This document shows, in pieces, positions 41,324 to 54,438 of a stretch of DNA of 64,000 nucleotides. This stretch comes from Escherichia coli. Lineage in GTDB: Bacteria; Pseudomonadota; Gammaproteobacteria; Enterobacterales; Enterobacteriaceae. The position numbers and the translations under genes are program-made. The stretch lies in NCBI RefSeq assembly GCF_013315695.1, contig NZ_CP054353.1; one strand, given 5' to 3'. The first letter of the stretch is position 1. Every line of letters starts with the position of its first letter. A model generated the notes under the pieces. The model was not told the DNA's origin. It did no database searches and saw nothing but the letters and a program-made list of their open reading frames with translations.

Positions 41324-41339
41324 TGGCACGGCAATTGCT
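41324..41339 (+). promoter_or_regulatory. Sigma-54 promoter upstream of lfgB operon
   Basis: TGGCACG-gcaa-TTGCT, exact match to -24/-12 consensus TGGCACG-N4-TTGCW; 37 nt upstream of lfgB ATG. Confidence 0.75.
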
Positions 41340-41375
41340 TAGCGTATGCGGATTGAAGCAGGAGTGACGCAGAGA

Positions 41376-41711
41376 ATGGGGATCAGTTTTCAACAAGCAT
41401 TGGGAGTGCATCCGCAGGCAGTGAAGTTACGTCTTGAGAGGACCGAGCTACTGACTGCGAATCTGGCGAACGTCGATACGCCAAATTTCAAGGCTAAAGA
41501 TATTGATTTTGCCAGGGAGATGCAACGGGCAAATAACGCGGCGGTGGATGTCCAGTACCGCGTGCCGATGCAGCCGTCAGAAGATGGCAACACCGTGGAA
41601 CTGAACAGCGAACAGGCACGGTTTTCACAAAATAGTATGGATTATCAAAGCTGTCTGACCTTTCTGAATCTGCAAATCAGCGGCATCAGAGAGGCCATTG
41701 AAGGGAAATAA
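41376..41711 (+). CDS. lfgB: Flag-2 proximal rod protein, FlgB homologue
   Basis: ATG 41376 preceded by SD AGGAG; conserved rod N-terminal motif. Confidence 0.88.
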   Translation: MGISFQQALGVHPQAVKLRLERTELLTANLANVDTPNFKAKDIDFAREMQRANNAAVDVQYRVPMQPSEDGNTVELNSEQARFSQNSMDYQSCLTFLNLQISGIREAIEGK

Positions 41712-41713
41712 GC

Positions 41714-42145
41714 ATGTCATTTACTGATATCTATCAGATTTCCGGCTCGGCGATGACGGCGCAAACGCTACGTCTGAATACCGTCGCCAGTAACCTGGCG
41801 AATGCTAATGCACCTGCCAGCAGCGAGGCGCAGGCGTATAAAGCGCGCAGCCCGGTGTTTGCGACGGTGTATCACCACAGCTTGCTGGTGGGTACACATC
41901 GTCATGCCATTGATGGTGCCAGCGTGCAGGTGCAGGACGTGCTGCAAACCGGCGGGGCGGTGAAACGCTATGAACCGCATTCGCCGCTGGCGGATGCTAA
42001 CGGGGATGTCTGGTATCCCGACGTCAACGTGGTGGAACAGATGGCGGACATGATGTCGGCCTCGCGCGATTTTGAAACCAATGTCGATGTGCTCAACAAC
42101 GTGAAAAGTATGCAGCAAAGCCTGCTGAAACTGGGAGAAGCCTGA
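41714..42145 (+). CDS. lfgC: Flag-2 proximal rod protein, FlgC homologue
   Basis: 143 aa. Confidence 0.9.
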   Translation: MSFTDIYQISGSAMTAQTLRLNTVASNLANANAPASSEAQAYKARSPVFATVYHHSLLVGTHRHAIDGASVQVQDVLQTGGAVKRYEPHSPLADANGDVWYPDVNVVEQMADMMSASRDFETNVDVLNNVKSMQQSLLKLGEA

Positions 42146-42858
42146 TGAATACCCTGGCGCTGAATGCGCAATCGCCGCAGCCGACCGCCACGGCGGAAAG
42201 CAACAACGTGGCGGCCAGCGACACGACAAGCAGCAGCGATAGCTCGCCCGTTGATACTTTCCTGACGCTGTTTGTCGCTGAGATCCAAAACCAGGACCCG
42301 ACCGACCCGACCGACGCCACCGAATATATCGACCAGCTTTCGTCAATGGCGCAGGTGGCGATGATGGAAGAGATGAGCGTGCAGGCGAATACCAACGCGG
42401 TGTTGATGAGCAACATTCAGGTGATGGCGCTCGGCAACCTGGTGGGCGACGACATTATGGTGCAGACCACCGCCTTGCAGGTGAGTGACCAGACCATTAA
42501 CGGTCGCGCCACGCTGGATGACGCCTGTACCACCGCCGATCTCCACTTTACCGATGCTGCGGGCGATGACTACACCGTCTCGCTGATCCCGGAAGGGAGT
42601 TCGTCGGTTGGGCCAGGCCAGGTCGATTTCTCGATTAATCCGGCGGATTACGGCATCCCGCCGGGCGATTACGACGTCTCGGTGGTGACCAACACCGGGG
42701 AAGAAGAGGTGCCGATTGAAGTCTCCGGCGAAGTGGAAGATGTACGCATCCCGCTCGACGGCAGCTCTCCGGTGCTCAACGTTGCAGGTGTGGGCGAAGT
42801 GCCGTTCACCATGATTAGCCAGTTTGGCGTACCCGATGCCGACAGTGATGTGGCGTGA
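42145..42858 (+). CDS. lfgD: Flag-2 hook capping/scaffold protein, FlgD homologue
   Basis: 237 aa. Confidence 0.85.
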   Translation: MNTLALNAQSPQPTATAESNNVAASDTTSSSDSSPVDTFLTLFVAEIQNQDPTDPTDATEYIDQLSSMAQVAMMEEMSVQANTNAVLMSNIQVMALGNLVGDDIMVQTTALQVSDQTINGRATLDDACTTADLHFTDAAGDDYTVSLIPEGSSSVGPGQVDFSINPADYGIPPGDYDVSVVTNTGEEEVPIEVSGEVEDVRIPLDGSSPVLNVAGVGEVPFTMISQFGVPDADSDVA

Positions 42859-42874
42859 TGTCTGGTGCCAAATT

Positions 42875-42971
42875 GCCTGATGCGCTTCGCTTATCAGGCC
42901 TACATGAAACTGCAATGTATTGAATCTGCATGGTTTTGTAGGCCGGACAAGGCGTTCACGCCGCATCCGGC
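42875..42971. repeat. REP/BIME element between lfgD and lfgE
   Basis: GCCTGATGCGCTTCGCTTATCAGGCCTAC ... GTAGGCCGGACAAGGCGTTCACGCCGCATCCGGC. Confidence 0.8.
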
Positions 42972-43017
42972 AAAACAACGGGCACGCAGTCAAAATTTGA
43001 ATTAACAGGACGAAACA

Positions 43018-53278: not shown

Positions 53279-53307
53279 TTAAGTTTGCTCCTGAGGTGTC
53301 GTTTTTA
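53279..53307 (+). promoter_or_regulatory. Candidate sigma-28 (LafS)-type promoter upstream of lafA
   Basis: TTAAGTTT-N13-CGTTTTTA about 44 nt upstream of lafA ATG. Confidence 0.35.
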
Positions 53308-53350
53308 CAGGGTATCGAAACGAAAACGATTAATCCCAAGGAGCAGTATC

Positions 53351-54265
53351 ATGTTATCTATTAACACCAATAACGCCTCAATGGCCGCCGTTAATGCAAT
53401 CAGCAAAAGCAGCTCTTCTCTGTCTACATCTATGGAACGCCTGGCAACGGGTAACCGGATTAACTCTTCTGCCGATGACGCAGCGGGCAAACAAATTGCT
53501 AACCGTCTGACAGCACAGTCCAGCGGTATGGGTGTGGCGCTGAGCAACATCAATGATGCCACCGCGATGCTGCAAACCGCCGACAGCATGTTCGACGAAA
53601 TGTCTGATGTGCTGGGTCGTATGAAAGACCTGTCAACTCAGGCAGCGAACGGCACCTACAGCGACGACGACCTGCAGGCGATGCAGGACGAATACGACGA
53701 ACTGGGTCAGCAGATGTCTGACATGCTGCAAAACACCACTTACGGCGGTACCAACCTGTTCGGTGTTTCCGGCACCAGCAACACCGGTACTGACGGCCTG
53801 TTCCAGAGCGCGGTAACTTTCCAGGTGGGCGCGGAATCTTCCGACACCATGACCGTGAACATTTCAAGCCAACTGAACACCCTGGTGACCGATCTTTCTT
53901 CTATCAGCAACTCCTTTAGTGCGGATCAGGCTGACACCACGGGCACCGCAGGTGTTTCTGGCGGTACTGAGCTGACCGCGTCTGGCTCGGCTAACCAGAT
54001 GATCACCAGCATCTCTACCGCGATGGATGATGTTTCGCAGATCCAATCCAAGCTGGGTGCGTCTATTAACCGTCTGAACGACACTGCCAACAACCTGACC
54101 AGCATGCAGAACAACACGGAAGTCGCTATCGGTAACATCATGGATACCGACTACGCGACGGAAGCGTCCAACATGACCAAACAACAGGTGCTGATGCAGA
54201 CCGGCATCACTATGCTGAAACAGTCCAACAGCATGTCCAGCATGGTTTCCAGCCTGCTGCAGTAA
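53351..54265 (+). CDS. lafA: Lateral flagellin
   Basis: 304 aa from ATG 53351 (SD AAGGAG); conserved flagellin N-terminus (MLSINTNNASMAAVNAI...LATGNRINSSADDAAG) and C-terminus (...QQVLMQTGITMLKQSNSMSSMVSSLLQ), short central domain. Confidence 0.9.
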   Translation: MLSINTNNASMAAVNAISKSSSSLSTSMERLATGNRINSSADDAAGKQIANRLTAQSSGMGVALSNINDATAMLQTADSMFDEMSDVLGRMKDLSTQAANGTYSDDDLQAMQDEYDELGQQMSDMLQNTTYGGTNLFGVSGTSNTGTDGLFQSAVTFQVGAESSDTMTVNISSQLNTLVTDLSSISNSFSADQADTTGTAGVSGGTELTASGSANQMITSISTAMDDVSQIQSKLGASINRLNDTANNLTSMQNNTEVAIGNIMDTDYATEASNMTKQQVLMQTGITMLKQSNSMSSMVSSLLQ

Positions 54266-54275
54266 TGGCGGACTT

Positions 54276-54306
54276 GCCGGATGCGGCGTAAACGCCTTAT
54301 CCGGCC
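54276..54306. repeat. REP element after lafA
   Basis: GCCGGATGCGGCGTAAACGCCTTATCCGGCC. Confidence 0.75.
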
Positions 54307-54308
54307 AC

Positions 54309-54343
54309 GAACAACACCGCCTGCGGGCGGTGTTGTTCTTTCT
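54309..54343 (+). terminator. Rho-independent terminator after lafA
   Basis: GAACAACACCGCC-tgcg-GGCGGTGTTGTTC followed by TTTCT. Confidence 0.7.
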
Positions 54344-54423
54344 GCGGCAGGCCTTTTTCCGCCAGACCGGAAACACCATTTCCGCCCCTTTTTCAATTTA
54401 TTGATTATTCACATAAAAATTAT

Positions 54424-54438
54424 TGGCACGCCTTTTGC
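54424..54438 (+). promoter_or_regulatory. Sigma-54 promoter upstream of lafB operon
   Basis: TGGCACG-cctt-TTGC, same core as the lfgB promoter; 33 nt upstream of lafB ATG. Confidence 0.72.

Follow-up and report, generated by a model that had tools for sequence, protein, structure and literature searches.

How a bacterium that carries a complete second set of flagellar genes would switch these genes on, and through which promoters, is the question raised by a 64,000-nucleotide stretch of the Escherichia coli contig NZ_CP054353.1 (hereafter the window). According to the RefSeq annotation of a 100% identical genome, which was retrieved by megablast of positions 28600-42000 against complete E. 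coli genomes, the window carries the complete Flag-2 (lateral flagella) locus between rayT and lafU. Its assignment to the Flag-2/Laf system is based on a second flagellar gene set that includes lafK, lafA, lafS/lfgM and lafTU and is situated at the lfhA-lafU site by yafL/rayT; its gene content agrees with that described by De Maayer et al. 2020 (PMC6993521). Among complete E. coli genomes, roughly one in four carries Flag-2: by megablast, 1260 of 5426 contain no less than 80% of the 13.4-kb query 28600-42000 (lafK to lfgB).

We consider it highly probable that the intact E. coli Flag-2 locus is wired as a three-tier cascade, in which the enhancer-binding protein (EBP) LafK and sigma-54 act through a GGAA-N7-TTCC repeat. 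A first-pass annotation of the window had paired two sigma-54 promoters, upstream of lfgB and lafB, with LafK; this finding is correct, and represents an already known regulatory design in the orthologous E. coli locus. For flgB_L and lafB, dependence on RpoN and LafK has been published in Vibrio and Aeromonas. The original Flag-2 paper, by Ren et al. in 2005, reportedly noted an apparent RpoN dependence. What we add is modest, namely a further promoter at lafV, a conserved and phased candidate enhancer with a spacer resembling binding sites of integration host factor (IHF), and a late-promoter motif.

Three predicted sigma-54 promoters in the Flag-2 locus

The identical core TGGCACG-N4-TTGC shared by the lfgB and lafB promoters, TGGCACGNNNNTTGC, has two exact copies in the window, at 41324-41338 (+) and 54424-54438 (+), against 0.10 expected, and none of 100 dinucleotide shuffles reaches two. 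The spacings of 37 nt to lfgB and 33 nt to lafB given in the first-pass annotation agree with the annotated starts of these genes (41376 for lfgB and 54471 for lafB, which is labelled fliD). To search beyond this exact word, we scored all GG-N10-GC sites in the window against TGGCACG-N4-TTGCW on a scale of 12 points, with GG and GC required. Both sites stand, but two is not the total, since three sites score at least 11/12 against 0.6 expected. The three top-scoring sites are all intergenic, face gene starts and lie 32-37 nt before the annotated ATGs of lfgB, lafB and lafV (Table 1). No further site of at least 10/12 was found by the window scan in the other Flag-2 intergenic regions. The spacing of 10 nt between GG and GC, the oriented intergenic position, the conservation of the core (see below) and the presence of a cognate EBP gene, lafK, in the locus together mark these sites as predicted sigma-54 promoters. 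The rpoN gene is located outside the window and is present in E. coli.

Taking the C of the GC element as -12, start sites are predicted at ~41350 for lfgB and ~54450 for lafB, giving leaders of 26 and 21 nt, and at ~39653 for lafV, whose promoter lies 35 nt upstream of the gene. Predicted leaders span 21-26 nt across the sigma-54 promoters, and the start codons are preceded by Shine-Dalgarno sequences. The predicted lfgB start site excludes an upstream in-frame ATG at 41346 of the lfgB open reading frame. Among the genes of the operon predicted downstream of the lafB promoter are lafS, for sigma-28, and those of the motor. The first gene downstream of the third promoter, labelled 'hypothetical' by RefSeq, shows a weak match to the FliB family of flagellin lysine-N-methylases (Table 1) and corresponds to LafV as named in De Maayer et al. 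2020 (PMC6993521).

For an evolutionary comparison we fetched 39 loci centred on LfgK homologues, in which genes were mapped by tblastn, and assembled from LfgK-centred loci a comparison set of 28 (592 kb) from Escherichia, Citrobacter, Phytobacter, Pseudocitrobacter, Pseudescherichia, Leminorella, Enterobacter, Budvicia, Vibrio and Shewanella. The GG and GC elements are kept, with a variable N4 spacer, at more than 20 orthologous loci in some ten genera, and such retention of the cores while the spacer drifts is the footprint of a functional sigma-54 promoter. Upstream of lfgB the site is found at 33-50 nt in Escherichia spp., several Citrobacter, Phytobacter, Pseudocitrobacter, Pseudescherichia, Leminorella, Enterobacter and Budvicia. 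Upstream of lafB it lies at 30-44 nt in the Enterobacterales loci that reach this gene (30-48 nt with Shewanella included), and upstream of the FliB-like gene, in loci that have one, it is usually found at 35-97 nt (Escherichia, Citrobacter, Phytobacter, Pseudocitrobacter and Leminorella), with no site before this gene in two Enterobacter loci. All three sites recur, at corresponding positions, in Escherichia, Citrobacter, Phytobacter, Leminorella, Enterobacter and Budvicia. Vibrio and Shewanella retain TGGCAY-N5-TTGT upstream of flgB_L, with TTGT at -12, and Shewanella retains TGGCAC-N5-TTGC upstream of lafB; the clusters of Burkholderia and Caballeronia show no such sigma-54 site upstream of lfgB. 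Within E. coli, the lfgA-lfgB region is present in 1279 of 5426 complete genomes, mostly at 90-96% identity, and the lfgB promoter is intact in three divergent alleles, the sole core change being C to T in TGGCAY.

A conserved repeat as candidate LafK enhancer

The first-pass annotation had proposed a search for upstream activator sequences about 100 bp upstream of the promoters. A shared repeat is indeed present, but nearer to the promoters, with 37-48 nt between it and the -24 element: the sequence GGAAA-N6-TTCCGCC is matched perfectly at just three places in the window, 37, 48 and 37 nt before the -24 elements of lafV, lfgB and lafB, respectively. Seven matches are found if one mismatch is permitted, against 0.5 expected, and the core GGAA-N7-TTCC has four exact copies in the window, three of them at the sigma-54 promoters. 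The lfgB copy falls in the first codons of the divergent lfgA gene, and an extra half-site, TTTCCGCC, occurs at 54356-54363 near the lafB copy.

The related loci show the same association. Their 592 kb contain 93 exact copies of GGAA-N7-TTCC against 8.6 expected, and 62 of these precede a sigma-54-like site by 20-130 nt; the gaps cluster at 40-41 and 51-53 nt, i.e. two classes differing by one helical turn. The longer spacing is always used at lfgB, the shorter one mostly at lafB, and either at lafV. At lfgB the repeat is found in 26 orthologous loci, Vibrio and Shewanella included, at 48-50 nt when the gap is counted from the 18-nt element; in these two genera it lies 48-50 nt upstream of flgB_L and ~70-105 nt upstream of lafB. 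The stem letters GGAA and TTCC are fixed across genera, with no covariation. The spacer between repeat and promoter is A/T-rich, and IHF cores with at most one mismatch are found within 60 nt upstream of the -24 element in 16 of 26 lfgB, 11 of 17 lafB and all 15 of 15 lafV promoters, as against 10-15% in shuffled sequences. In the window, a possible IHF site with a perfect WATCAANNNNTTR core lies between the lafB repeat and its -24 element.

Based on this association, we propose that GGAA-N7-TTCC is the LafK enhancer. The simplest reading of its geometry is that a dimeric Fis-type helix-turn-helix (HTH) would bind the 15-bp palindrome, centred at about -74 or -85, in a manner dependent on the helical face. 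LafK is the regulator expected to be common to all taxa with the repeat. Our literature search, with Ren 2005, Stewart and McCarter 2003 and Wilhelms 2013 outside its reach, returned no description of a LafK binding site. We think it fairly likely that the repeat is an undescribed LafK enhancer used across Enterobacterales, Vibrio and Shewanella, which in Enterobacterales would operate unusually close to the promoter (~-74/-85) with an IHF-type site in the ~40-nt spacer. The same reading would extend to lafV. The flagellin-modification genes of variable region 1 (VR1), to which it belongs, are described as horizontally derived (De Maayer et al. 2020, PMC6993521), and lafV appears to have entered the LafK regulon by bringing with it the complete enhancer-IHF-promoter module.

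Two of the three copies in the window come just after an upstream gene (lafA or lfgN), and this position raises a different possibility: the repeats could be weak terminators or RNA hairpins at which transcription of lafA and lfgN ends, or sites of some other regulator (LafZ or a host factor), with LafK acting elsewhere or from solution. The lafB copy is indeed flagged as terminator-like, having a 6-bp stem followed by CCCCTTTTT. In Pseudescherichia vulneris (L016:1857-1871) and UBA7338 (L020:1879-1893) the post-lfgN GGAA-N7-TTCC is extended into a 9-bp stem, with a run of T after it and no sigma-54 site downstream, and there resembles a terminator of lfgN or a vestige of the lafV promoter module. 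Moreover, enhancer-independent flagellar EBPs exist, such as FlgR of H. pylori, which is cited in a passage of PMC3162934. However, a terminator would make no sense at the lfgB copy, which is embedded in the 5' part of the lfgA coding sequence ahead of a divergent promoter. As RNA hairpins the repeats are weak, at -5 to -10 kcal/mol (-5 kcal/mol for the lafB copy), in comparison with the -26 kcal/mol of the lafA terminator at 54309-54338, which precedes the lafB copy. Their stem letters are invariant rather than covarying, and the distance to the -24 element is fixed and quantised. The repeat is also kept in the Vibrio and Shewanella loci, in which a protein screen with the LafZ of the window gave no match, and LafK retains a DNA-binding HTH_8 domain. 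We therefore regard this explanation of the repeats as a whole as unlikely; termination is an unlikely principal function for them and a possible secondary role.

LafK is an enhancer-binding protein without a signal domain

Analysis with Pfam bears out the minimal architecture that the first-pass annotation had read from the translation of lafK, i.e. a sigma-54 interaction domain of the AAA+ class and an HTH with no receiver or sensor domain: the protein consists of Sigma54_activat (6-172; PF00158, E=1.2e-63), AAA_lid_14 (178-246) and HTH_8 (284-317). It displays the features of an EBP, with Walker A (GETGAGKE, 32-39), GAFTGA (81-86), Walker B (DE, 105-106) and arginine-finger (FREDLYYR) motifs. 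No receiver, GAF, PAS, V4R or FleQ domain is present N-terminal of the AAA+ module. This module begins at residue 6, and the reading frame is closed by a stop 26 codons ahead of the ATG. LafK homologues of 325-348 aa are found throughout Enterobacterales, which indicates that the receiver-less form is not a truncation in this strain.

The likeness to PspF noted in the first-pass annotation holds at the level of architecture, since Francke et al. 2011 (PMC3162934) group LafK with PspF and HrpR/S among the EBPs without a signal domain (type Ic). It does not extend to orthology: LafK scores 235.6 bits against a cut-off of 443.55 with the PspF model TIGR02974 and 203.1 against 529 with NF008622. 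Its AAA+ domain is nearer to those of FlrC, NifA, NtrC1 and FleQ than to that of PspF, and its top solved relatives are flagellar EBPs (Vibrio cholerae FlrC, 4qhs, E=1.4e-74; FleQ, E ~1e-63). The annotation of the locus names no product as PspA, although no PspA-specific search was made. In the absence of a signal-receiving domain, the output of LafK presumably depends on its amount or on a partner rather than on phosphorylation, which is the standard reading for this architecture.

The lfiE gene starts 14 nt past lafK, suggesting that lafK probably heads the lafK-lfiEFGHIJ operon. By the annotation lafK is the sole EBP gene in the locus, and a homologue is found between lfiM and lfiE in the four other genera fetched; it is also described as a conserved marker gene among flag-2 loci (PMC6993521). 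This linkage bears on whether the promoters, while dependent on sigma-54, might be driven mainly by another E. coli EBP or by cross-talk. Flagellar EBPs can cross-activate, as V. parahaemolyticus LafK can replace the polar regulator FlaK (Kim and McCarter 2004, as related in a passage of PMC3162934). In addition to the conserved linkage of lafK, however, the repeat common to the three promoters is specific to them in the window, and in Aeromonas hydrophila a lafK mutation lowers the activity of PflgB_L from 970 to 20 Miller units (PMC5013049). Control mainly by an EBP other than LafK thus seems very improbable to us.

The sigma-54-free lfiM-lafK region and LafZ

The first-pass annotation had found no sigma-54 element upstream of the lfiM or lafK/lfiE operons, and the scored scan agrees, with no site of at least 10/12 in 28664-29050 or before lfiE. 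The best sigma-54-like site in the gap, at 28685, reaches 9/12, has GT at -12 and is not conserved. Neither the sigma-54 site nor the repeat was found on either strand in the lfiM-lafK gap or in the lafK 3' end and lfiE leader of E. coli, Citrobacter, Leminorella, Budvicia and Hafnia. This absence from five genera agrees with the published class I status of the region, as PfliM_L of A. hydrophila is class I (PMC5013049) and the fliM_L operon of V. parahaemolyticus is LafK-independent (PMC3930126). A simple scan detected no sigma-70 promoter in the gap.

The E. coli gap measures 387 nt, including an insertion of repetitive extragenic palindromic (REP) elements, versus 594-641 nt in Citrobacter freundii, Leminorella, Budvicia and Hafnia (L041-L044). 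It retains an A/T-rich block shared with Citrobacter and is without ~200 nt of the lafK leader found there. This shorter control region might be relevant to the silence reported for E. coli Flag-2.

A candidate for the input to this region is LafZ, a ToxR/CadC-like protein of 281 aa in which an N-terminal winged helix (~24-112) is followed by a single predicted transmembrane segment (~143-162) and by a periplasmic domain of ~120 aa. The gene is divergent from lafA over a 486-nt A/T-rich gap. LafZ is a plausible upstream (class I) input, i.e. a sensor atop the cascade.

Late genes and candidate sigma-28-type promoters

No site matching the strict E. coli FliA consensus (TAAAGTTT-N11-GCCGATAA) is found upstream of the late genes. 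Comparison of orthologues instead reveals TWAAGWWT-N13/14-CGYTTTW as a pattern conserved across genera upstream of lafA, lfgK and lfgM. By analogy with other flagellar systems we assign this pattern to LafS, a FliA-family sigma factor. The position of lafS inside the sigma-54-dependent lafB operon would link the class II to the class III genes, and together with the anti-sigma gene lfgM it suggests, again by analogy, the usual checkpoint logic.

A probable three-tier cascade

Taken together, these elements would fit a cascade as follows. In the first tier, some input, with LafZ as a candidate, would act on the sigma-54-free lfiM-lafK region, from which the divergent lfiM-lfhA (export apparatus) and lafK-lfiEFGHIJ operons are predicted to start, providing the export apparatus, MS/C-ring components and LafK. 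In the second tier LafK, presumed to be constitutively competent, would be active once made. Its dimers would bind GGAA-N7-TTCC, whose centre precedes the start site by ~74 bp (lafB, lafV) or ~85 bp (lfgB), and might oligomerise there; with the help of IHF-type bending of the short A/T-rich spacer, they would remodel the sigma-54 holoenzyme at the three TGGCAC-N5-TTGC promoters. The predicted output comprises the rod/hook operon lfgB-J, the lafB-U genes for cap, chaperones, hook-length control, LafS and stators, and the flagellin-modification gene lafV. In the third tier LafS would read the sigma-28-type promoters of lafA, lfgKL-lafW and lfgMN, with the anti-sigma factor LfgM as a check on LafS.

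The result is a testable promoter map of E. coli Flag-2, with three LafK/sigma-54 promoters bearing candidate enhancers and three sigma-28-type late promoters. On this scheme the on/off decision must fall at the sigma-54-free lfiM-lafK region. It predicts that ectopic expression of lafK switches on lfgB, lafB and lafV, and that the inducing signal acts upstream of lafK, LafZ being a candidate.

Several points weigh against this scheme. The centre of the proposed enhancer (-74 or -85) is nearer to the promoter than in most characterised enhancers, and the related loci share common ancestry, so that the counts exceed the number of independent observations. The sigma-28-type pattern, which has exactly three matches in the window against 0.005 expected, was defined after the sites had been viewed. 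The sigma-54 site of V. parahaemolyticus lafB is published as a prediction, and RpoN gave no shift of this promoter fragment in an electrophoretic mobility shift assay (EMSA; PMC9817140). Finally, the Flag-2 flagellin of E. coli ST131 strain EC958 was not detected in laboratory conditions (PMC4637896), and the circuit may accordingly be silent or in need of a further signal.

The EC958 result, in which no LafA was seen at 28 or 37 C, might also be taken to mean that E. coli Flag-2 is not expressed and that the motifs are conserved relics of a cryptic system, i.e. sigma-54-type promoters without present function. Deletions or frameshifts occur in many Flag-2 loci, 22% of which are without at least one gene (PMC6993521), and the E. 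coli lfiM-lafK region, ~200 bp shorter than in other genera, has received REP insertions. In this strain, however, none of the annotated genes from lfhA to lafT, nor the start of lafU, carries a pseudogene flag in the stretch fetched from the identical RefSeq genome. The promoter cores and repeats are intact in E. coli alleles that diverge by 4-6%, and in distant loci the spacers drift while the cores stay, which points to purifying selection; the retention of the lfgA-lfgB region by many complete E. coli genomes (see above) argues in the same direction. Loss of function is thus an improbable explanation of the promoters, and a LafK/sigma-54 cascade is preferred.

Comparison with known flagellar and sigma-54 systems

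A close parallel is the Laf system of V. parahaemolyticus, in which LafK and sigma-54 are followed by FliA_L (Stewart and McCarter 2003; Gode-Potratz 2011; PMC9817140). Both systems have orthologous genes in one order around flgB_L and lafA-lafB, sigma-54 sites at flgB_L (ATGGCACGTATCTTGT in V. parahaemolyticus; TGGCATGCATCTTGT in the compared Vibrio loci) and lafB, a LafK-independent fliM_L operon and a receiver-less LafK, and the compared Vibrio loci also have GGAA-N7-TTCC upstream of both promoters. At the V. parahaemolyticus flgB2 promoter RpoN binds in EMSA (PMC9817140). The E. coli promoters differ in having the canonical TTGC at -12, and the enhancer-promoter distance at lafB is 37 nt in Enterobacterales versus ~105 nt in Vibrio. 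The enterobacterial loci additionally possess lafZ, lafW and the VR1 modification genes, among which lafV has its own sigma-54 promoter, and the surface-sensing inputs of Vibrio (polar flagellum, Scr and OpaR) have no evident counterpart here. The main text of the Yersinia pseudotuberculosis RpoN chromatin immunoprecipitation sequencing paper has nothing specific on Flag-2 promoters.

The lateral hierarchy of Aeromonas hydrophila (Wilhelms 2013; PMC5013049) likewise has a class I PfliM_L, a strictly LafK-dependent class II PflgB_L and a class III PlafA. Its three-tier logic is experimental, whereas here it is predicted from motifs, and the compared set contains no Aeromonas locus. The Flag-1 system of E. 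coli and Salmonella (FlhDC, then sigma-28) shares the divergent flgA and flgB genes, the FlgM/FliA checkpoint and class 3 promoters at flagellin, flgK and flgM. It differs at class 2, where Flag-1 uses sigma-70 with FlhD4C2 and Flag-2 uses sigma-54 with LafK, and in the -10 element of the sigma-28 promoters, which is CGYTTTW in Flag-2 as against GCCGATAA in Flag-1.

Among EBPs, the E. coli phage-shock activator PspF resembles LafK in combining AAA+ (with GAFTGA) and HTH domains with no N-terminal regulatory domain, a likeness in architecture only. HrpR/HrpS, the EBPs of type III secretion in Pseudomonas syringae and Erwinia, are also receiver-less (class Ic), serve as a sigma-54 switch for the regulon of a secretion system and are regulated through their own expression as well as through partner proteins; they form a hetero-hexamer on the single hrpL promoter, unlike LafK, which is the product of a single gene and would act on three structural-gene promoters. 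The polar flagellar activators FleQ/FlrA and FlrC provide the closest solved AAA+ domains to LafK and similarly activate flagellar genes with sigma-54. In contrast to LafK, in which only 5 residues precede the AAA+ domain, they bear N-terminal FleQ or receiver domains and respond to cyclic di-GMP, FleN or phosphorylation.

Organization of the locus and additional observations

The positions of the genes and of the predicted control elements are collected in Table 1.

Table 1. Genes, promoters and candidate control sites of the Flag-2 locus, in coordinates of the window
Feature	Position	Strand	Description or basis
lfhA to lfiM	22434-28663	-	RefSeq annotation
lfiM-lafK control region (class I, divergent)	28664-29050	.	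No sigma-54 site, no GGAA-N7-TTCC; REP pair
lafK	29051-30037	+	Sigma-54 enhancer-binding protein, 328 aa; Pfam domains
lafK-lfiEFGHIJ-tagD	29051-35928	+	RefSeq annotation
Glycosyltransferase gene and 'hypothetical' gene	36065-39629	-	RefSeq annotation
lafV	38700-39629	-	FliB-like flagellin lysine-N-methylase; NCBIfam NF038110 FliB, weak match, E=5.7e-10, below family cut-off
Sigma-54 promoter of lafV	39664-39679	-	CGGCACGCTTATTGCA; score 11/12, intergenic; absent from first-pass annotation
Candidate LafK enhancer of lafV promoter	39717-39734	-	GGAAACGGATTTTCCGCC; perfect match, 37 nt upstream of -24
lfgNMA	39757-41294	-	RefSeq annotation
Sigma-28-type class III promoter of lfgMN (anti-sigma factor, chaperone)	40514-40542	-	Predicted by ortholog comparison
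Candidate LafK enhancer (upstream activator sequence) of lfgB promoter	41258-41275	+	GGAAATAAAACTTCCGCC; perfect match, 48 nt upstream of -24 T
Sigma-54 promoter of lfgBCDEFGHIJ operon	41324-41339	+	TGGCACGGCAATTGCT; exact match, score 12/12
lfgB to lfgJ	41376-47983	+	RefSeq annotation
Sigma-28-type class III promoter of lfgKL-lafW	48344-48372	+	Predicted by ortholog comparison
lfgKL-lafW	48404-51718	+	RefSeq annotation
lafZ	52022-52864	-	RefSeq annotation; ToxR/CadC-like membrane-anchored winged-helix regulator; NCBIfam CadC E=2.3e-8, residues 34-112
Sigma-28 (LafS)-type class III promoter of lafA	53279-53306	+	TTAAGTTT-N13-CGTTTTT; predicted, block conserved in orthologues
lafA	53351-54265	+	RefSeq annotation
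Candidate LafK enhancer of lafB promoter	54369-54386	+	GGAAACACCATTTCCGCC; perfect match, 37 nt upstream of -24 T
Possible IHF site	54394-54406	-	AATCAATAAATTG; between lafB enhancer copy and -24
Sigma-54 promoter of lafBCDEFSTU operon	54424-54439	+	TGGCACGCCTTTTGCC; exact match, score 11/12
lafBCDEFSTU	54471-60619	+	RefSeq annotation
lafS	58098-58817	+	FliA-family sigma-28 gene; annotation

Some additional sigma-54-like sites in the window were examined and set aside. The word TGGCACCCGGTTTAC at 48324, upstream of lfgK, departs from the core by one mismatch, is without GC at -12, is not conserved and has the conserved sigma-28-type promoter just downstream. Intragenic sites in yafS (11688), lfiF (31752), lfgA (41129, -), lafB (55065, -) and lafS (58586) are not preceded by GGAA-N7-TTCC, and chance or coding conservation accounts for them best. 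The yafS site, TGGCACATACATTGCC at 11688-11703 (+), has a perfect core and lies in coding sequence outside the flagellar locus; it is probably an intragenic RpoN-type site of the sort common in E. coli, or a chance occurrence. Those in lfgA (TGGCATGACTATCGCT, 41129-41114, -) and lafS (AGGCATTCCGCTTGCT, 58586-58601, +, 229 nt upstream of lafT) recur in several genera, most likely due to coding conservation. For lfgA itself (40557-41294, -), no recognisable sigma-54, sigma-28-type or sigma-70 promoter is found in the 81-nt gap that it shares with lfgB (41295-41375), so that its promoter would overlap the lfgB sigma-54 promoter or sit inside lfgB.

REP elements and bacterial interspersed mosaic elements (BIMEs) populate several Flag-2 intergenic regions. 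The 420-nt gap between lfgJ and lfgK is mostly filled by 2.6 repeats of a 117-bp unit (48000-48310), one REP pair lies within the lfiM-lafK control region (28840-28925) and another follows lafA (54280-54305). The locus is bordered by rayT (21821-22318), which encodes a REP-associated tyrosine transposase.

The Flag-2 allele of this strain is rare, as at least 99% identity over the lfgA-lfgB region is found in only 5 of the 1279 E. coli genomes that carry it, and its LfgK shares 98-99% identity with the LfgK proteins of Pseudocitrobacter, Escherichia sp. E1V33 and E. whittamii (L002, L014 and L015). The combination of an allele rare in E. coli and a near-identical LfgK in other taxa hints at a recent between-genus exchange of the locus.

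Two further genes of the locus encode potential modification enzymes. One, at 35524-35928 (+), is appended to the lafK-lfiJ operon and codes for a TagD-like glycerol-3-phosphate cytidylyltransferase, labelled 'FAD synthase family protein' by RefSeq. The other, at 36065-38521 (-), lies downstream of lafV after a 178-nt gap and codes for an 817-aa glycosyltransferase of the GT2 family. Their joint presence suggests a glycerol-phosphate-containing modification of the lateral flagellin.

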